Below are positions 36,608 to 55,178 of a DNA stretch of 64,000 nt, in pieces (position 1 is the stretch's first letter; every line of letters begins with the position of its first letter). The notes beneath the pieces are model-generated. The model saw nothing but the letters and a program-made list of their open reading frames with translations, ran no database searches and was not told the origin of the DNA. This stretch comes from an uncultured delta proteobacterium (GTDB taxonomy: Bacteria > Myxococcota > Myxococcia > Myxococcales > Myxococcaceae). A program made the position numbers and the translations under genes. The stretch covers positions 1-64,000 of the forward strand of contig CAVZMH010000014.1 of NCBI GenBank assembly GCA_963776345.1, written 5' to 3'.

Positions 36608-39091
36608 TCACTTCTGGCCGGCGATGCGGATCTCGCGCTGCGCGTCCACGTGCTGCGGATCCAGCGCCACGCAGCGCTTGAAGTGCTTCAGCGCGGTCGT
36701 GGCGTCGCCGGTGAGCTTGTACAGCTGGCCGATGAAGTAGTGCGCCGGGGCGCAGCGCTCGTTGAGCTTCAGCGACTGGTTCAGGTCACGCAGGGCCTCC
36801 ACCATCGCCACCTTCTTGTCCGGGAGGGTGAAGAAGCGGGCGTAGCCCCGCCAGGCGTAGAACTCGCCTTCGCGCGGATTGGCGGCGATGGCGTCGTCGA
36901 ACGTCTTCACCGCCTCGGGGAAGCGCCGGGCCCGCACCAGCGCCGTTCCCTTGTTGAAGGTCTCCTCGGCCTGGAGCACCGACTGCACGTCCACCTCGCC
37001 CGGTCCGCCGTCGGCGAGCGTCTCCTTGTAGCGGGCGCGCGAGGCGTCGTCGGCGAGCATCCGGTTGGCCTCGCCGATGGCGGCGAAGATCTCCGCCTTC
37101 GCCCGGCCCAGCTCGGGGGGAGCGTCGGGCGGAACGGTGTCGGGGTGGTACAGCTTGGCGAGCTTGAAGTAGGCCGCCTTCACCGCGGCCGCGTCGACGT
37201 TCTCGGGGACGCCGAGCACCTGGAAGTGGTTCTCCTTCCGGATCTTCTCCAGCTTGGCCTGGAGCGCGCGGAGCTCCGCGGTGAACCCGGGAGAGGCCGG
37301 CCGCGGCGTCGGCATCGGCGCGATGCGGGGCGGGTCGGCCTGGGGGAGCGACGCCAGCCCGGTCGGGGTGATCGCCGGGGCCCGCGGAGCCGCGGGAGCT
37401 TGCGTCGCCGCCGGGGCGGATGGCGCGGTGGGCTTGCGGGGCGGCGCCGGGGCGGCCGCGGCAGGCGCGGGCCGCGGGGGCGGCGTCGCGACCGGAGGGA
37501 CGGGAGTGGGCCGCGACGGGGCCGCGGGCTCGGGACGAGGCGGCGGGGCGGGAGGTGCGCGCAGCGTCACCTCGGGGAACGAGACCGCGTCCAGCTCGCG
37601 CAGGAGCAGCGCGACCCGGAGGATGGTGTCCATCTCGCCGGCGTTGCTCTGCGCGAGGTGCGCCAGCGAGCGGGTGCCGTCGAAGTAGCCCATGGCGCGC
37701 GTCTCCTGCGCGGTGAGGCGGAGGTCAGGCAGCGAATCGCCGGCGCTCCGGCGCACCACTGGCCGCTCGCGCACGTCCATCAGGCGCGACTTGAGGTCGG
37801 GAAGCGGGACCCGGCGGATGACCTCCGCCAGGAGCCCCCAGCGGTTGCCGAGCGGGACCACCTTGCTGGCCGGTAGCTCGAGCGCCTCGAAGCGGAAGCT
37901 CCCGCGCGGCGCGAGGTAGGCGTGGAGGAGGATGTCCGCCGCCCGCTGGGCCAGCGCGGGGAAGACCAGCCCGGGGTTCACGGCGCCGATGGTGAAGAGC
38001 GCAGCGAGCACGTCGTTGCCGTACTTGATCGCCTCGTGCTCGGCACGGGACACCTGATCCGCCGTGGCCAGCCGCTGGGCGACGAGGAAGGGGCCGATCG
38101 CGTCGGAGGCGTGCGTCGACTCGGCCGACTCGGGGTTCCCGCGCCGCATGTACACGGTGGCGGTCCGGTCCTCGAGGTCGAAGAAGAAGAGCCCGGTGGC
38201 GCTGGCCCGCGCGCCCTGGACGTAGACCTTCAGCGCGTTGGTCTCGGCGAGGTCCGCCCGGAGCAGGCTGAAGGTCGAGGTGAGCGGAGTGGCGGCCCGG
38301 GCGGGTGGCTTCGACGCTCCCGGCGGGGCGAGCTCGAAGGGCACCGCCTCGGCCCAGGCATCCTGCGGCTCGAGCGGCGCCTGCCCGCGCGTCGGCGGCG
38401 GGGTGAGAGGCTCGGCGGTGAGCACCGGAACGCTGCCGGTGGGCGTGCGTCCGGCCGCAGCCGCGGGCGCCGGAGCGATGGGCTCGGCAGGCGCGGCGGT
38501 GAGCACGGGAACGGTCTGGAAGGTCCCGGTGGGTGTCCGCCCTGGCGCCGGTGCCGGCGGCGAGGTGAGGGGCTCGGCGGTGATCACGGGAACGCTGTCG
38601 GTGGGCGTCCGTCCGGCCGCTGCCGTAGGCGCCGGAGCGACGGGCTCTGCGGGGGCGGCGGTGAGTACCGGGGGAGCAGCACTCGGTGCGGGAACGGGCC
38701 GTCCGGGCGCTGCGGGCCGGCCTCCCTTCGGTGCGCGGCCCACCGCCGGCGGCGTGCTGGCCCTGTCACCTGCCGCGTCCGTCTGCGCATCGGCGCCGAA
38801 GAGCGCGGCGTCGAGCTGACCCTCGACCGGGCCGGAGGACCCGGCCGGCGCGCCGGACTCCGCGTCGAGCTGGACGTCCCGGCGGTCGTCGTCTCCCCAG
38901 AGGTGGCGGGGGAAGTAGTCGCGCAGCTGCGGGAAGCGGTAGGGGAGCGCGTAGGACTCGCCGTCGGTCGAGACCTGGAGGAGGCCCTGGAGCACGCCGC
39001 CGTCGATGAGGAGCTCGACGGTGGAGGGCTCGATGGGGCCGAACACCTTCCCCTCGCGGTTCCGGACGAAGATCTGCGTGCCGCCCGTCAT
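36608..39091 (-). CDS. DnaJ-domain/TPR protein with Pro-rich linkers and DUF4388-like middle domain
   Basis: HFQVLGV..YFKLAKLYHPD J-domain followed by TPRs; typical myxobacterial architecture. Confidence 0.85.
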   Translation of the reverse strand: MTGGTQIFVRNREGKVFGPIEPSTVELLIDGGVLQGLLQVSTDGESYALPYRFPQLRDYFPRHLWGDDDRRDVQLDAESGAPAGSSGPVEGQLDAALFGADAQTDAAGDRASTPPAVGRAPKGGRPAAPGRPVPAPSAAPPVLTAAPAEPVAPAPTAAAGRTPTDSVPVITAEPLTSPPAPAPGRTPTGTFQTVPVLTAAPAEPIAPAPAAAAGRTPTGSVPVLTAEPLTPPPTRGQAPLEPQDAWAEAVPFELAPPGASKPPARAATPLTSTFSLLRADLAETNALKVYVQGARASATGLFFFDLEDRTATVYMRRGNPESAESTHASDAIGPFLVAQRLATADQVSRAEHEAIKYGNDVLAALFTIGAVNPGLVFPALAQRAADILLHAYLAPRGSFRFEALELPASKVVPLGNRWGLLAEVIRRVPLPDLKSRLMDVRERPVVRRSAGDSLPDLRLTAQETRAMGYFDGTRSLAHLAQSNAGEMDTILRVALLLRELDAVSFPEVTLRAPPAPPPRPEPAAPSRPTPVPPVATPPPRPAPAAAAPAPPRKPTAPSAPAATQAPAAPRAPAITPTGLASLPQADPPRIAPMPTPRPASPGFTAELRALQAKLEKIRKENHFQVLGVPENVDAAAVKAAYFKLAKLYHPDTVPPDAPPELGRAKAEIFAAIGEANRMLADDASRARYKETLADGGPGEVDVQSVLQAEETFNKGTALVRARRFPEAVKTFDDAIAANPREGEFYAWRGYARFFTLPDKKVAMVEALRDLNQSLKLNERCAPAHYFIGQLYKLTGDATTALKHFKRCVALDPQHVDAQREIRIAGQK
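38394..38673 (-). repeat. Imperfect 162-bp (54-aa) internal duplication in the Pro-rich linker
   Basis: PVLTAAPAEP(V/I)APAP(T/A)AAAGRTPT(D/G)SVPV(I/L)TAEPLT occurs twice; ctcggcggtg at 38411 and 38573. Confidence 0.7.
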
Positions 39092-48367: not shown

Positions 48368-49492
48368 TTGGCCGGACCTCACCACGTCGTCCTCGTCCCG
48401 GGCTTCTTCGGCTTCGCCAACCTGGGCGACTTCACCTACTTCGGGCACGTGCGCGAGCTGCTCGGCGAGGTGGGCCCCCCGGCCGGCCTCGACGGGGAGG
48501 TCCGCATCGTCCTCACCGAGCCGTCGTCCTCGCTGCCCCGCCGGGCCGCGCTCCTCGCCGAGGCGATCCACCGCCTGCTCGAGCAGCGCGGGGGGGTGGT
48601 GAGCATCGTCGGCCACTCCACCGGCGCGCTCGACGCGCGGCTGATGCTCAGCCCCGGCTCCATCCTCCCCACCAAGGTGGACGTCGAGCAGTGCGCCGCC
48701 GCGGTGCACGGGGTGGTCGGCGTGTCCGCACCCCACCATGGCACGCCGCTCGCCCAGCACTTCACCTCGCTGTTCGGGGGCCAGCTGCTGAAGCTGCTCT
48801 CGCTGGCCACGGTGTACTCGCTTCGCACCGGGCGGCTCCCGGTGGGCGTGGCGCTCCGGCTCGCGCGCCTGCTCCGCCGGAAGGACGCAACCCCCACCGG
48901 CGTGGTGGACCAGCTCTACCTCCAGCTGCTGTCCGACTTCGCCGGCAAGCGCCGCCGCGCCATCGAGCAGTTCTTCTCCAGCGTGCACAGCGACCAGGGG
49001 CTGGTGCCGCAGCTCGCCCCGAGGGCCATGGAGCTCTTCAACGCCGCGACCGCCGACCGCCCGGGCGTCCGCTACGGCGAGGTGGTGACCCGGGCGCGTC
49101 CCCCGGGGCTGCGCTCGCTCACCCGGGCCGGGTTCAGCCCCTACGCCCAGACGACCCACGCGCTCTACGTGGTGCTGTACCGGCTCGCCCGCGGCCGACC
49201 CACCGATCCGCCCGGGCATCTCTCGCCCGAGCACCGGAAGTTCCTCCGCCGCGCCTACGGGAAGGCGCCCGACCACACCGCCAACGACGGCATCGTCCCC
49301 ACGCTGAGCCAGGTGCGCGGCCAGCTCGTCGCGGCGGTGTGGGCGGACCACCACGACGTGCTCGGGCACTTCCACAAGCCGCGGCACGTCCCGCCGCACT
49401 TCGACTGGGTCGCCTCGGGCACCGGCTTCGACCGGGAGCACTTCGAGGCGGTGTGGAAGGCGGTGGCGCGCTTCCTCGGCGAGGCGCGCTAG
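48368..49492 (+). CDS. Lipase/esterase (alpha/beta hydrolase)
   Basis: VLVPGFFGF, GHSTG nucleophile elbow, PHHGTP, NDGIVP, DHHDVLGH. Confidence 0.85.
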   Translation: MAGPHHVVLVPGFFGFANLGDFTYFGHVRELLGEVGPPAGLDGEVRIVLTEPSSSLPRRAALLAEAIHRLLEQRGGVVSIVGHSTGALDARLMLSPGSILPTKVDVEQCAAAVHGVVGVSAPHHGTPLAQHFTSLFGGQLLKLLSLATVYSLRTGRLPVGVALRLARLLRRKDATPTGVVDQLYLQLLSDFAGKRRRAIEQFFSSVHSDQGLVPQLAPRAMELFNAATADRPGVRYGEVVTRARPPGLRSLTRAGFSPYAQTTHALYVVLYRLARGRPTDPPGHLSPEHRKFLRRAYGKAPDHTANDGIVPTLSQVRGQLVAAVWADHHDVLGHFHKPRHVPPHFDWVASGTGFDREHFEAVWKAVARFLGEAR

Positions 49493-49520
49493 AGGACCCG
49501 ATCGGCGGCCCGTGCGGAGC

Positions 49521-50477
49521 TCACGCGGCCGACGGTGGCACCGAGGGAGCCGGGGTGGAGGCCGGCTCGGCCTGGGCCGCACCGGCGCCCGGGCGCAGGC
49601 GCGCGGCGATCCACCGCATCCAGCCCGGGGTGATGATCTGCTCGCGCCGGATGGCGACGACCAGGAAGGCGGCGCCCAGGGCGGTCCCGAGCACCATCGC
49701 CGGGAGCCCCGCCTCGGGCCCGAACGCCCCGCCGGTCAGGAGCGACGGCCCGGGGAACGTCGCCTGCGCCAGCACGCCGATGTCGTTGCCGGAGACCAGC
49801 GAGCCCCACACCGGGCCCTCGACGAGGTTCCACGCCCAGTGGATGCCGATGGGGAGCCAGAGCGAGCGGGTGGCCACGTAGGCCGCGGCGAGCAGCCCTC
49901 CGGCCTCGATGGCGATGGCGACGCTGCTCATCCAGGTGGCGCCCGGATTCCCGCGGTGCCCGAAGCCGAAGAAGAGCGCGCTCACCAGCATCGCCAGCCA
50001 GGTCCCGATGCCCTGCTCGAGGAGCCGGAAGACGATGCCCCGCATCGCGACCTCCTCGAAGATTCCCACCGCGAGGAACAGGAGGACCACCTTGCCGAGC
50101 AGGAGCGCGCGGCCGGTCCCCTCGGGCAGCGGCGCCCAGCCGAGGATGCGGTAGCTGCCTGCCAGCGCCAGCACCCCGGTCACCGCGGTGAGCAGCGCCG
50201 CGCCGAGCAGGAAGCCGCGCAGCGTGTCCGGCACCGCGCGTGCCGGAGCGAGCCCCGCATCGCGCGGCCGCCTGCCCTCGAAGAGGAGGAGGCCGAGCGT
50301 GAAGACCACCAGGGTCATCACCGCGTTCCGGACCGAGCCCGCCAGCGTGACGTTGGGCAGTCTGGCGACGGACGGAGCGACCCAGTGCAGAAGGCGCACC
50401 AGCAGATAGGCCAGGACACCGGTCCAGACCAGTCGCGGGAGGGGGGCGAGGAGGATGCGTCGGAGCAGTGCAGGCAT
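49521..50477 (-). CDS. CPBP (CAAX/Abi) family intramembrane metalloprotease
   Basis: FEEVAMRG, FGFGH, IHWAWN, LTGGAFGPEAG. Confidence 0.92.
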   Translation of the reverse strand: MPALLRRILLAPLPRLVWTGVLAYLLVRLLHWVAPSVARLPNVTLAGSVRNAVMTLVVFTLGLLLFEGRRPRDAGLAPARAVPDTLRGFLLGAALLTAVTGVLALAGSYRILGWAPLPEGTGRALLLGKVVLLFLAVGIFEEVAMRGIVFRLLEQGIGTWLAMLVSALFFGFGHRGNPGATWMSSVAIAIEAGGLLAAAYVATRSLWLPIGIHWAWNLVEGPVWGSLVSGNDIGVLAQATFPGPSLLTGGAFGPEAGLPAMVLGTALGAAFLVVAIRREQIITPGWMRWIAARLRPGAGAAQAEPASTPAPSVPPSAA

Positions 50478-50585
50478 TCGGGACCGGGGTGACAGACGGC
50501 CAGGAGGCGCGCCGATTGCCTAGTCCGGGGCGCAGGAGTCTCGCCAGCCTCCAGGCGACCGTCCGCAGGCCGTGCGCCCGCGGGC

Positions 50586-50936
50586 TCAGCCGCTGATCGG
50601 GAAGATCAGGCGCAGCCGCTGGAACATCTGCCGCGGGCACTCGACCGGCCGGTTGCACGACCGCGGCACCTCGCGGCGGCAGACGTGGACCTGCTTCTCC
50701 TCCGGCTCGCGGGCCGGAGGCGCCTCGCGGAGCAGCCCGGGCGCGGCGAGCACGCCCAGCCCGGCGGCCCTGGCCGCCGTGGTCCCGTGACCGCCGGCAG
50801 TCGCGACCAGGGTCGGGGCGAGGTGCGCCAGGACCGACGCCGCGCGCCAGGCCGAGGACGGAACCAGCGCGGCGCCGGCGAGGAGCAGGACCAAGGCGGC
50901 GATGGAGCAGGCGACGACCGGGGAGTCCTTGCGCAT
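50586..50936 (-). CDS. Small hypothetical membrane/secreted protein
   Basis: MRKDSPVVACSIAALVLLLAGAALV.. with Cys-containing C-terminus; co-oriented between the sdpB-like and CPBP genes. Confidence 0.45.
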   Translation of the reverse strand: MRKDSPVVACSIAALVLLLAGAALVPSSAWRAASVLAHLAPTLVATAGGHGTTAARAAGLGVLAAPGLLREAPPAREPEEKQVHVCRREVPRSCNRPVECPRQMFQRLRLIFPISG

Positions 50937-51054
50937 GGCGTACCTCGCGGTACCCGGGGAAATGTCACGGGGCCCGGGCCGGGGCAAGGCGGGGTCGCAG
51001 GGGTTGCAGCCGGCCTGGCACCGGCTGCAGGGAAGCGCGCCCTGGCCCTCCGCG

Positions 51055-51972
51055 TCAGCCGCCGACGGGTGGTGCGTACGACACGTGCTCCACGGGCTTC
51101 GCGGTGCGCGGCGCCGGCCGCCGGGCGAGCTGCGGGAGCGCGAAGGGGCGCCACCACGGCCGCAGGTAGAGGACCAGCGCGGCGGACATCGCGATGGCGA
51201 ACGACGGCAGGCCATGGACCAGCGCGATCCCGAGGTGGAACACGATGGCCACCGGAAGCAGACGGAGGCGGAACCGGGTGGGCGCGACGAGGGCCGCGGC
51301 GAGGCATAGCTCGAAGACCAGCACGCTCCAGGTCAGCGGAACCACCAGCACCGTCGGGCCGATCCGGTCGGTGATCCAGCGCATGACGCCGACGGTTCCG
51401 AACTTCGGGTGGATCCACCAGTAGTAGAGCGCGGTGCCGTTCGCCCACTCCTCGGTGGGGAACTTCAACACCGCGGCGAAGAGGTAGATGACCGAGATCT
51501 GGAGGCGGAGGAGGAGCAGACCCGTCTGAGCGGTGATCGACGCCACGACTCCGCCGTCGCCCGTTCCCTGCCACTGCCAGACGCGCCGGTCGGTGAGCGC
51601 CACCGGGATGAGCAGCAGACTGAGCGTCGCGGCGACCTGGTCCCCGCCGTCGATGACCGAGGCCGAGGCGGCGAAGCTGTACGAGATCCACCAGTGCGGA
51701 ATGGCGGTGAGCCGGGGCCGCCAGCCCACGATGACCAGCACCAGCACCACGATCGCCAGGAGCTTCGCCAGGACCAGGTGATTCCGGGCGAGGAAGAAGA
51801 GGCTCGCCCCGGCGATGGCCCGGCGATCGATGATCCCCACGTCCTCGATGAGCAACGGCTGGAACAGCTGGTCGGTGGAGCTGGCCAGGAGCGTGAGGAG
51901 CGTCGCCGTGGCGAGCAGCGAGCGGCCCACGCCATAGACGTTCGTCCAGGGTCTATCCGCGCGGGTCAGCAC
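51055..51972 (-). CDS. sdpB: SdpB family (HTTM-domain) antimicrobial peptide maturation membrane protein
   Basis: PWTNVYGVGRSLLA, GWRPRLTAIPHWW, IDGGDQVA, LTDRRVWQW, RLQISVIY, EWANGTALYYW, FHLGIA. Confidence 0.88.
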   Translation of the reverse strand: MLTRADRPWTNVYGVGRSLLATATLLTLLASSTDQLFQPLLIEDVGIIDRRAIAGASLFFLARNHLVLAKLLAIVVLVLVIVGWRPRLTAIPHWWISYSFAASASVIDGGDQVAATLSLLLIPVALTDRRVWQWQGTGDGGVVASITAQTGLLLLRLQISVIYLFAAVLKFPTEEWANGTALYYWWIHPKFGTVGVMRWITDRIGPTVLVVPLTWSVLVFELCLAAALVAPTRFRLRLLPVAIVFHLGIALVHGLPSFAIAMSAALVLYLRPWWRPFALPQLARRPAPRTAKPVEHVSYAPPVGG

Positions 51973-52475
51973 TGGACGTTCAGCAAGGCATACGTCGCGG
52001 GGAGCGCGATCTTGCCGCTCGAGCGCGCCCAGGCCCAAGGGACCGGCGTGCGCGAGAGGAGCAGCACCTCACCGCAGAGCTGCGGATGCCGGGCGAGGTT
52101 TCTCACCGTCAGCCCGGGTCCGGTGGTCTCGGGAAATTGACCGGGCGCGAGGGTGGCACCCGACCACTCTGTCCCGATCTGCGAGACCAGGGTCCGGAGC
52201 TCGGAGCTGTGGTGCACCGGCCCGCGCCGGAGGCCAAGGAGGTTGCCTGCGCTGGCGAACGGCGCGTCGGCCTGCACCCAGGCGCCGTCGCGCCAGCGGA
52301 ACGCCTGGAGCCGGTCCTGGAGCGGCGCCGCGAAGTAGCCCCAGAACTGTGGGGCGATGGCGAGCATCTGCAGCCGCCGCGTGGTCGACGGCCGCAGAGG
52401 GGACTCCAGCCAGGCGACGCAGGTCAGGCAGACGATCGCTCCGGCGAGGATCGTCGCCACGCGCCGCGGGCGCAC
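51966..52475 (-). CDS. sdpA: SdpA family antimicrobial peptide system protein
   Basis: N-terminal TM, PQFWGYF, NLLGLRR, LCGEVLL..PVPWAWA; overlaps the sdpB-like start. Confidence 0.8.
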   Translation of the reverse strand: MRPRRVATILAGAIVCLTCVAWLESPLRPSTTRRLQMLAIAPQFWGYFAAPLQDRLQAFRWRDGAWVQADAPFASAGNLLGLRRGPVHHSSELRTLVSQIGTEWSGATLAPGQFPETTGPGLTVRNLARHPQLCGEVLLLSRTPVPWAWARSSGKIALPATYALLNVQC

Positions 52476-52476
52476 C

Positions 52477-53445
52477 TCAGCGCTCGCCGGAGGCGGGCCG
52501 CTCGAGCGTCATCGCGACCGAGTTCGCAAGCTGCTCGGAGAAGAGCCGGTTGTTGAAGAGCGCCCAGGCGGGCGCCACGGTGACGTCGGCGACGGGAAGG
52601 TTGCCCCGGACGCCCGCGACGGGAAGGTTGCCCCGGACGTCGGCGACGGGAAGGTTGCCCCGGACGTCGGCGACGGGAAGGTTGCCCCGGACGTCGGCGA
52701 CGGGAAGGTTGCCCCGGACGTCGGCGACGGGAAGGTTGCCCCGGACGTCGGCGACGGGAAGGTTGCCCCGGACGCCCGCGACGGGAAGGTTGCCCCGGAC
52801 GCCCGCGACGGGAAGGTTGCCCCGGACGCCGGCGACGGGAAGGTTGCCCCGGACGTCGGCGACGGGAAGGTTGCCCCGGACGTCGGCGACGGGAAGGTTG
52901 CCCCGGACGTCGGCGACGGGAAGGTTGCCCCGGACGTCGGCGACGGGAAGGTTGCCCCGGACGTCGGCGACGGGAAGGTTGCCCCGGACGTCGGCGACGG
53001 GAAGGTTGCCCCGGACGTCGGCGACGGGAAGGTTGCCCCGGACGTCGGCGACGGGAAGGTTGCCGGGGGCGCCCCGCACCGACGTCTGGTTCACGACCTG
53101 CACCGCGCGCGCGAGCATCGCCCGCACCGTGGCCGGGTTTCCGCTCCGCGCCGCCCGCGCGAACTCGGCCACGAACCCCGGCTGCGCGCTCTCGACCGCG
53201 TCGATGAGCCGCGCCCGCGCGTCGGACATCGCCGCCAGCTCGCCCTGGTCACTCACGTAGAGTTCGGGCCGCAAATGGTCGCGCGCCTCGGGGAGAACGC
53301 TGGCCAACGGCCCGCTCCCGAACACGACGCCCTCGAGGATCTGCCGATCCGTGAAGTCCTGATTGACCGCGACACCCTGCCCACAACCGAGCGCAGCAAC
53401 CCAGCAGAACGACGTCACGACGACCAGCTTCGCCGAGCGGTGCAT
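52477..53445 (-). CDS. SdpC-family precursor whose core region is 18 tandem GNLPVA(D/G)VR repeats
   Basis: Signal/lipobox-like N-terminus; SdpC-like pro-domain (FTDRQILEGVVFGSGPLASVLPE..PGFVAEFARAARSGNPATV); C-terminal LFSEQLANSVA; directly upstream of the sdpA/sdpB-like genes. Confidence 0.8.
   Translation of the reverse strand: MHRSAKLVVVTSFCWVAALGCGQGVAVNQDFTDRQILEGVVFGSGPLASVLPEARDHLRPELYVSDQGELAAMSDARARLIDAVESAQPGFVAEFARAARSGNPATVRAMLARAVQVVNQTSVRGAPGNLPVADVRGNLPVADVRGNLPVADVRGNLPVADVRGNLPVADVRGNLPVADVRGNLPVADVRGNLPVADVRGNLPVAGVRGNLPVAGVRGNLPVAGVRGNLPVADVRGNLPVADVRGNLPVADVRGNLPVADVRGNLPVADVRGNLPVAGVRGNLPVADVTVAPAWALFNNRLFSEQLANSVAMTLERPASGER
52579..53064 (-). repeat. Coding tandem repeat, 18 x 27 bp
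   Basis: Plus-strand unit ccggacgtcggcgacgggaaggttgcc with variants ccggacgcccgcg.. (x3) and ccggacgccggcg.. (x1); 486 bp, no spacers. Confidence 0.97.
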
Positions 53446-53615
53446 GTGGTCCCCCTGGTGAGGTCAGGCGTGCAGAACGTCATGAGACACACGAATGCCT
53501 ACCCTCGGCAAGTCCTCACCGACCCGCGGGGCTGTTTGCACCTCGGCTCTCCAGCCGGGATGGGTCAAATGGGACAGCGTGTGACGTTGTCACACCTGCA
53601 CAAGGCTACAGGTCG

Positions 53616-55178
53616 CTACAGGGGGATGTTCCCGTGCTTCCGGGCGGGGTTCTCCTGGCGCTTGTCCTTGAGCATCTCCAGCGCCCGGACCAGCTTCTCC
53701 CGCGTCTGCTCGGGACGGATCACCTCGTCGATGTACCCGAGCTCGGCGGCCTTGAAAGGATTGGCGAATTTCTCCCGGTAGTCGGCCACCAGCCGGGCGC
53801 GTTCGGCGGTCTGATCCGACGCCTTTGCCAGCTCGTTGCGGAAGATGATGTTCACCGCCCCCTCGGGCCCCATCACCGCGATCTCCGCCGTGGGCCAGGC
53901 GTAGTTCACGTCCGCCCGGATGTGCTTGCTGGCCATGACGTCGTAGGCCCCGCCGTACGCCTTGCGGGTGATGACCGTCACCTTGGGCACCGTGGCCTCG
54001 GCGAACGCGTAGAGCAGCTTCGCCCCGTGGGTGATGATCCCGCCCCACTCCTGCGCGGTCCCGGGGAGGAACCCCGGCACGTCGACGAAGGTCACCAGCG
54101 GGAGGTTGAAGCAGTCGCAGAGGCGCACGAAGCGCGCCGCCTTCACGCTGGCCGAGATGTCCAGCACGCCCGCGAGCACCGCCGGCTGGTTGGCCACGAT
54201 GCCCACCGAGCGCCCATTCAGTCGCGCGAAGCCCACCACGATGTTCCGCGCGTAGTGCTCGTGCACCTCGAGGAAGTGATGCTGGTCCACCACCGCCCGG
54301 ACGACCTCCTTGATGTCGTAGGGCTTGTTGGGGTTGGGCGGGACCAGCGTCCGGAGCGAATCGTCGGCGCGGAACGGATCGTCCTCGGAGGCGATGACCG
54401 GCGGATCCTCGGCGTTGTTCGAGGGGAGGTACGAGAGCAGCTCGCGGACCGTCAGGATTCCGGCCTGCTCGTTCTCGGCCGCGAAGTGCGCCACGCCCGA
54501 CTTCTGGTTGTGCGCCAGCGCCCCGCCCAGGTCGTCCTTGGTCACCTCCTCGTGGGTCACCGTCTTGATGACCTCGGGGCCGGTGATGAACATGTAGCTG
54601 GTGTCCTTGGTCATCACGATGAAGTCGGTGATGGCCGGCGAGTACACCGCCCCGCCCGCGCACGGGCCGAGGATCAGCGAGATCTGCGGCACCACGCCGG
54701 AGGCCAGCGTGTTGCGGAGGAAGATGTCCGCGTACCCGGCGAGGCTCTCCACGCCCTCCTGGATGCGCGCCCCGCCCGAGTCGTTGAGCCCGACGATCGG
54801 CGCCCCCACCCGGGTGGCGAGGTCCATCACCTTGCAGATCTTCTGGGCGTAGGCGCCGGACAGCGAGCCGCCGAAGACGGTGAAGTCCTGGGCGAAGACG
54901 AAGACCTGCCGGCCGTCGACCCGACCGTAGCCCGTCACCACCCCGTCGCCGGGGATGCGCTTGTCGCCCATCCCGAACTCGGCGCTGCGGTGCATGACGA
55001 ACTTGTCCAGCTCGACGAAGGTGCCGGGGTCGAGCAGGAGGTCCAGCCGCTCGCGGGCGGTGAGCTTCCCCGCCTCGTGCTGCTTGGCGATGCGCTCGGC
55101 TCCGCCGCCGAGCTCGGCCTGCCGCTCCAGGGCGTCCAGGCGGGCGCGGAGCGGGTCTGGGTCGGGAGGGGCATCCAT
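53616..55178 (-). CDS. pccB: Propionyl/acyl-CoA carboxylase carboxyltransferase (beta) subunit
   Basis: [64 protein letters not shown]. Confidence 0.93.

Follow-up and report, generated by a model that had tools for sequence, protein, structure and literature searches.

The DNA analysed here, called the window below, is a stretch of 64,000 nucleotides from an uncultured member of the Myxococcaceae. Its minus strand carries, at 52477–53445, an open reading frame of 322 aa whose translation is an SdpC-type precursor. The precursor consists of an N-terminal part of 127 aa ending in QTSVR-GAP, an array of 18 units of the form GNLPVA(D/G)V(R/T) (aa 128–289; 13 GNLPVADVR, 4 GNLPVAGVR and 1 GNLPVADVT) and a tail of 33 aa. 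On translation, this layout matched a preliminary description of the window exactly. The array is encoded by 18 units of 27 bp at 52579–53064, with Asn-[Leu/Ile/Val/Met]-Pro in each unit, and was the top-scoring tandem repeat of the window in TRF (period 27, 17.9 copies, 98% matches, score 917; the runner-up array scored 230). The DNA of all 13 DVR units is identical, and the GVR unit occurs in two codon forms. TRF also found a weaker tandem repeat at 38413–38665 (period 81, 3.1 copies, 64% matches). Pfam matches on the array (Parecho_VpG, T2SSN, OB_cyt-4 and Chorion) were set aside as repeat-driven artefacts. The plus-strand ORFs 52349–53260 and 52357–53781 over the array were also rejected, since the homology to SdpC and the synonymous excess described below both lie in the minus frame.

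The N-terminus of the precursor is basic-hydrophobic and was read as a putative signal peptide (53383–53445, minus strand) with a conserved lipobox-like ALGC, found as a pattern match by regular expression. G20-C21-G22 were invariant in 21 aligned homologs, and Cys21 is a probable lipoprotein anchor. The lipobox-like pattern was present in 29 of 34 N-termini of the clade, and a loose form of it was also matched by 45 of 104 ordinary SdpC proteins. The pro-domain (aa 22–127; 53065–53382) matched TIGR04032, the SdpC model, over aa 26–120 with an E-value of 3.3e-13 and 49.9 bits; the score lies under the cut-off of 99.2 because the match spans only positions 2–92 of the 172 in the model. PF26137 was precomputed on all 22 proteins found by searching with the pro-domain, and the three Atlas rows shown for the precursor all read Toxin_SdpC (scores 0.78–0.83), which we treat as a lead only. 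The SdpC pro-domain proposed earlier was therefore upheld by TIGR04032 and PF26137. In the AF2 model the pro-domain was helical (pLDDT about 80–93) and the tail formed two helices. The tail (PAW..LF.EQL..SVA; 52477–52578 with the stop codon) has L301, F302, E304, Q305, L306, S309 and A311 invariant in 21 homologs. Similar tails occur in distant SdpC proteins, and on sequence it appears to correspond to the segment behind the hydrophobic core of ordinary SdpC. A search of the PDB with an SdpC profile gave nothing better than E ≥ 0.04.

The next two genes on the same strand are sdpA (51966–52475, 169 aa), which starts two bases past the sdpC stop, and sdpB (51055–51972, 305 aa), which encodes an HTTM membrane protein and whose GTG start overlaps the sdpA stop. 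SdpA matched PF17418 above cut-off (E 7e-17) and reached 52 bits against TIGR04034, just under the cut-off of 53.1; SdpB matched TIGR04033 with 227 bits against a cut-off of 178. Both genes had already been suspected beside the precursor. Upstream, the pccB–sdpC intergenic region (53446–53615, minus strand) showed in alignment a GTGTGACAAC box, GGACTTG, TTCGTGTGTCT blocks and a purine-rich ribosome-binding site. The blocks were conserved across 27 distinct upstream regions, and the perfect palindrome of the window's own region was found in only 6 of the 27 aligned regions. The intergenic region is a putative promoter/operator of the cluster. A sigma-70 promoter and an intrinsic terminator were not found in 49400–53700.

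The gene order pccB-sdpC-sdpA-sdpB was preserved in every relative as far as the contigs extend; many metagenome contigs stop within the array. Past sdpB the gene content differs among relatives, and a protease, cyclase or transporter of its own is not a constant part of the cluster. A gene for a CPBP/Rce1-like intramembrane protease lies at 49521–50477 (minus strand) and is syntenic downstream within the genus. The CPBP family is a class often linked to bacteriocin immunity. In several relatives, variable inserted DNA, up to several kb long, sets this gene apart from sdpB, and sigma-factor-like and large repeat-domain genes were seen in it by eye; weaker CPBP homologs were also found in genomes that lack sdpB. 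A conserved ORF of 116 aa (50586–50936, minus strand), situated between the CPBP gene and sdpB, has a hydrophobic N-terminus and, at the C-terminus, a motif of three Cys. Its frame gave no Pfam or NCBIfam match, and it is a possible immunity or accessory protein. In the six frames of the window's own genome (G000), no other ORF was found to have three Asn-X-Pro motifs inside 70 aa.

A search with the pro-domain retrieved 22 proteins from 324 candidates. All 21 homologs carried tandem units (3–10 Asn-X-Pro units each), which makes the array a family feature. The precursor was present in 10 of 12 genomes of the same genus, which comprises uncultured Myxococcaceae, with the locus syntenic; SdpB was above cut-off in 10 of the 12, partial in one and not found in one genome that is 68% complete. 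None of 24 genomes from the family's other genera gave a match to the same query, and one weak match (E 5e-4) came from another family. For a wider view of the clade, 84 sequences were collected, 22 without the anchor pattern were left out, and 47 of the 62 kept reached the tail. All 47 had at least two units. Two complete loci among those left out (L048 and L057) have a single unit, and near-identical loci have 2–4, so that copy number runs from 1 to 4 among the near-identical precursors L042–L059. Clade arrays comprised 1–19 units of 8–31 aa each. The highest counts were 19 (L066), 18 in the window as assembled, 14 or more (L030) and 13 (L065). A tree built from pro-domain and tail (71 rows and 120 columns, with a rough bootstrap) placed all 23 rows with arrays on one side of a branch with 98/100 support and a stem of 1.1. 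One sub-branch (P0030, P0033, P0034, L039–L063, L070, L072 and L073) lacks the lipobox Cys, has a copy number of 1–5 and carries long Pro-rich units of 26–31 aa still centred on A-N-[VILM]-P. Genome G004 holds two copies of the pccB-sdpCAB region on separate contigs (C16 and C17; L020 and L021) with several genes frameshifted in both, which is probably due to a mixed or error-rich assembly.

Across the class Myxococcia, a search for SdpC matched 27 of 301 genomes. Among the loci outside the genus, an ordinary hydrophobic core was present in 20 of the 22 that were read, and an Asn-X-Pro array in none of the 22. The other two carry different polar repeats. At L103/L118 (G111:C126:457768–458112, minus strand; same protein as P0146) a Tyr/Asp/Thr-rich repeat cargo (YDLTY, YDPTY) lies beside sdpA and sdpB. 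At L104/L119 (G092:C1:6306958–6307284, minus strand), adjoined by sdpA and sdpB, about every fifth residue of the cargo is Asn (NTDSG, NTESD). L120 (G104:C1, about 1876300–1877100, minus strand) is an ORF distantly similar to SdpC and rich in Pro and Trp in its C-terminal part, and no match to sdpA or sdpB was found within the 9 kb examined around it.

Perez Morales et al. 2013 is reportedly the primary SdpAB paper. The nearest known relatives of the locus are the SdpABC/YitPOM systems of Bacillus subtilis. According to the available text of PMC6818787, SdpAB is required to process SdpC to active SDP, a single hydrophobic toxin of 42 aa (C141–S182 of SdpC). Both systems have the SdpC pro-domain, the tail and adjacent sdpA and sdpB genes, with an N-terminal export signal that is putative here, and in both the cargo sits between pro-domain and tail. 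In contrast to the single hydrophobic toxin of B. subtilis, the cargo here is a polar tandem array free of Cys, as had been pointed out earlier, with an invariant Asn-[LIVM]-Pro; the putative signal is lipobox-like, the gene order is sdpC-sdpA-sdpB and no SdpI was found. The best 19-residue Kyte-Doolittle mean of the array was at most 1.25 in 25 of 25 clade representatives, whereas it was at least 1.6 in 91 of the 104 ordinary SdpC proteins. This agreed with the proposal that repeats stand in place of the hydrophobic core.

Descent from the Sdp system (TIGR04032/3/4 matches) and the CPBP-family gene downstream would fit released units that act as antibacterial SDP-like toxins by membrane depolarisation. 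Against this, the arrays of all 25 representatives lack a hydrophobic segment, and the main unit of the window is net neutral. Furthermore, SdpI (PF13630) was not found in G000, which is 98.4% complete, while the B. subtilis control was positive; another immunity protein is possible, as for other Sdp paralogs. Because the hydrophobic core is missing and SdpI was not found, the locus was classed as an Sdp variant and not as an SDP toxin system. The toxin function suggested in the preliminary description was left without support, and we consider it improbable.

The element common to the units is Asn-[Leu/Ile/Val/Met]-Pro, which the preliminary description had not singled out. Among 25 representatives with less than 85% identity in the pro-domain (L071 and L031 were left out as frameshifted or cut), it was the only shared element and occurred in 25 of 25. 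In an unbiased search over all gapped residue pairs, N-x-P recurred in all 25 representatives and the runner-up, R-x4-P, in 18; in 1000 within-unit shuffles, a control that ignores common descent, the maximum was 16. The remainder of the units varied widely, with examples such as ARPMNLPVD, SRGDQAFNIPVA, ADRSLNLPA and the Pro-rich 26–31-mers, and the share of Pro in the units ranged from 6 to 37%. Two N-[LIVM]-P motifs within the last 95 residues were found in none of the 104 ordinary SdpC proteins.

Near-identical unit variants in 21 arrays were compared codon by codon, leaving out pairs that differ at more than 4 bases. It was found that 51 codon changes were synonymous and 18 non-synonymous, although synonymous sites make up only 27%. 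This excess indicates that the unit peptide is under selection. In L065, one peptide is encoded by 6 DNA forms. These statistics overstate independence, because kin inherit motifs and several of the 21 arrays are closely related. The dN/dS of the pro-domain was 0.25–0.46 against 11 relative loci and that of sdpA 0.34–0.61 in 9 loci; sdpB was also below 1. Neighbouring pccB is under tighter constraint than the sdp genes, with values of 0.06–0.10 in intact frames.

Decay of sdpC, with DNA slippage having removed the core and left a neutral VNTR, or an expansion produced by the assembly, would account for 13 of 18 units being identical in DNA, for a copy number of 18 that comes from the assembly, and for frameshifts at some relative loci (G004). 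It would not account for a motif retained across diverged units with a synonymous excess, for intact sdpA and sdpB under selection, or for the conserved upstream elements. Depth was checked in assembled contigs of other samples (runs X1–X4), where it gives no copy number. In three of the four runs, from three studies, short repeat-only contigs were deeper than flank contigs (X2, up to 16 versus 2.6–4.1; X3, 27.6 versus 2.6; X4, up to 15.5 versus 3.5–4.7), which speaks against an artefact; in X1 the sole contig reached into the array from its tail end. Since the relatives L066 (19 units) and L065 (13) have arrays of different sequence, the architecture is not accounted for by faulty assembly. 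Neutral or artefactual repeats were therefore regarded as largely refuted, and we hold them to be highly improbable.

The preliminary description had also proposed that a VR|G junction, found before the array and between its units, could be a site of processing. As a conserved signal this junction was not borne out in the clade. The nearest Arg or Lys upstream of the Asn was 1–15 residues away, most commonly at −3 (weight 9.5 of 25), and Arg/Lys at −2 was found in one of 25 representatives, that of the window. Every linker held an Arg or Lys in 21 of the 25; the units of L029 have neither residue, and those of P0027 nearly none. Since 4 of the 25 representatives have linkers without Arg/Lys, release by one protease would not be general.

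Multi-core RiPP precursors, such as those of cyanobactins, fungal dikaritins/KEPs and repeat-core graspetides, likewise hold many similar short units per precursor, and in most clade members basic residues lie between the units as well. The arrays share with this group repeated cores and a conserved motif under selection. They differ in that no PatA/PatG-type protease, DUF3328 oxidase or ATP-grasp ligase is among the identified genes of the locus, in that there is no fixed cleavage motif, and in that the sole candidate enzyme is a membrane HTTM protein. In multi-core RiPP precursors generally, recognition sites are conserved and cores vary. Asn-X-Pro might on that analogy be a recognition or cleavage signal only, the products being the stretches between (here VADVRG/VAGVRG). 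In favour of this, the linkers differ between species but are held by purifying selection inside an array. SdpAB is moreover described as needed for processing in the available text of PMC6818787. On the other side, the linkers, of 5–28 residues, have no common chemistry. An origin of Asn-X-Pro as an ancestral leader–core junction was rejected, because N-x-P precedes the core in just 3 of 91 ordinary SdpC proteins. We judge it unlikely that the motif is a signal and nothing more.

The main alternative is that the precursor is never cut and is a lipid-anchored surface or periplasmic protein, displaying a repeat arm of variable length for adhesion, matrix or kin recognition. The arm could be extended, or a β-solenoid or amyloid-like, and might possibly be modified by SdpAB at each Asn-X-Pro. 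The lipobox-like signal in 29 of the 34 N-termini fits this alternative. If release of peptides were the sole task of the precursor, a lipid anchor would be uncommon, although many ordinary SdpC proteins match the loose pattern too. The differing copy number within near-identical precursors and the Asn-ladder look of the L104/L119 cargo at another Myxococcaceae sdpCAB locus also fit. AF2 placed one strand per unit over aa 141–271 (mid-array pLDDT about 80–86), which resembled generic β-helices, the only matches in VIA (Z up to 12.8), and this is weak evidence. The β-solenoid that the preliminary description had offered as an alternative thus did appear in the model; but AF2 is reported, in the available part of PMC11795689, to give confident and unrealistic solenoids for perfect repeats, the pTM was 0.46, Foldseek found no match to the precursor model at E ≤ 0.001, and one conserved solenoid would be a poor fit with units of 8–31 aa and Pro contents of 6–37%. 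As far as the available text of PMC6818787 goes, the cargo is excised in the known Sdp system. An uncut surface protein seems to us doubtful, while deserving to be taken seriously.

In the reading that we favour, release of modified peptides, SdpAB would carry out the modification. A profile of 71 SdpB sequences had human GGCX, the vitamin K carboxylase, as its sole match in the PDB (E 6e-6); single-sequence PDB searches with SdpB and SdpA found nothing. With the AF2 model of SdpB (pLDDT 90.5), the best 14 rows in Foldseek were all GGCX (probability 1.0, E 0.0025–0.05, TM 0.47–0.57), and in VIA GGCX ranked first (Z 8.6, rmsd 3.7, 185 aligned), a middling Z for a helical protein. K170, E221 and H246 of SdpB were invariant in 71 of 71 sequences and align with K218, D263 and H287 of GGCX. 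Likewise invariant were R156, Q158, Y163, W176, G179, F258 and M262, which the HMMER alignment pairs with R204, Q206, Y211, W223, G226, F299 and M303. SdpB is accordingly similar to GGCX in the predicted transmembrane fold and in the equivalents of K218 and H287. It differs in having Glu for D263 and, in 71 of 71 sequences, Ile for N290, and in that the match spans about residues 51–330 of GGCX without the C-terminal carboxylation region, residues 374–418 being missing. From model and alignment, SdpB is predicted to have the GGCX transmembrane fold with its catalytic Lys. For SdpA, a profile search of the PDB gave nothing, and an Atlas search gave unnamed clusters and DUF5819 at 27%, which was uninformative.

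In the available parts of the GGCX literature, K218 deprotonates vitamin K hydroquinone, H287 coordinates water at the quinone, and region 374–418 is essential for γ-carboxylation. The same K/E/I pattern and the same truncation as in SdpB are described, in the accessible text of 10.64898/2026.03.26.714578, for giant-virus vitamin K epoxidase domains without the carboxylation region. A bacterial relative of GGCX, MloH, α-carboxylates Asp according to the portion of PMC12186529 available, and this would imply deprotonation at Cα. Because the units of the window contain no Glu, carboxylation of Glu is not expected. The own genome encodes a VKOR domain in an open frame of 552 aa on a separate contig (G000:C7:63295–63687). 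A second weak SdpB/HTTM-like match (E 1.5e-5) was seen at G000:C22:347710–347817. Systems with a hydrophobic core have these same conserved residues in SdpB, with only 2 clade-specific columns, so that the residues bear on SdpAB in general and are no proof of Asn-X-Pro as its target. Of 91 ordinary cores, moreover, 24 have no Asn in the scored region. SdpB is a plausible candidate for the modifying enzyme.

Taken together, we favour the following explanation, which in our view is about evenly poised between right and wrong. Counting against it are the lack of a constant protease gene, the 4 of 25 representatives with linkers lacking Arg/Lys, the Ile at the N290 position of SdpB and the weaker constraint on the sdp genes than on pccB. 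SdpC would be an exported carrier, lipid-anchored in most members, in which pro-domain and conserved tail pair as a helical scaffold and the cargo between them loops out to SdpAB. In this genus the cargo would be a tandem multi-core array, with Asn-[LIVM]-Pro in a variable linker as the functional unit. SdpB, as a truncated membrane module resembling vitamin K carboxylase, would generate a strong base by oxidising a quinol at its Lys/Glu/His site and, with SdpA, would act at each Asn-X-Pro site. As to the reaction itself, we would guess first at an epimerisation, which leaves the mass unchanged; the next candidates are Asn-directed backbone cleavage and then oxidation or carboxylation at Asn. 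General proteases that cut mostly behind Arg/Lys would afterwards release many copies of short peptides, mainly GNLPVADVR in the window and different in each species, and these may serve as signals or inhibitors and not as a membrane-collapsing toxin.

No description of an SdpC with repeat cargo, or of the link between SdpB and the GGCX active site, was found in the literature searched; the supplements of Sdp and GGCX papers might list homologs. In the available text of the sources seen, SdpA and SdpB are called 'required' for SDP maturation (PMC6818787) or a putative exporter, and no chemistry is given there. New here is that the Sdp scaffold and maturation genes were retained genus-wide while the toxin was replaced by an array of short peptides. 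The natural substrate of the B. subtilis type is very hydrophobic and hard to analyse; here the substrate is soluble and repeated 18-fold. With one invariant Asn-X-Pro and an SdpB carrying the predicted catalytic Lys, this makes the SdpAB reaction directly testable.

The SdpC scaffold is evidently not bound to a hydrophobic toxin. Existing database labels are 'SdpC family antimicrobial peptide' for the precursors and HTTM for SdpB. Three unrelated polar repeat cargos occur in the Myxococcaceae (Asn-X-Pro arrays, Tyr/Asp repeats and Asn pentapeptides), and automatic 'antimicrobial peptide' labels may therefore conceal a broader peptide-modification platform. In a tentative extension, which we think possible without expecting it, SdpAB would represent a class of extracytoplasmic enzymes, so far unrecognised, that modify peptides in dependence on quinol and O2, and SdpC would be a general carrier of interchangeable cargo. 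Built on the active site of the vitamin K carboxylase, such an enzyme might for instance be an epimerase outside the radical-SAM family or might cleave the backbone at Asn. In this genus SdpC would then give rise to a new class of multi-core RiPPs, made of Asn-X-Pro peptides that are species-specific and maybe serve as identity signals.
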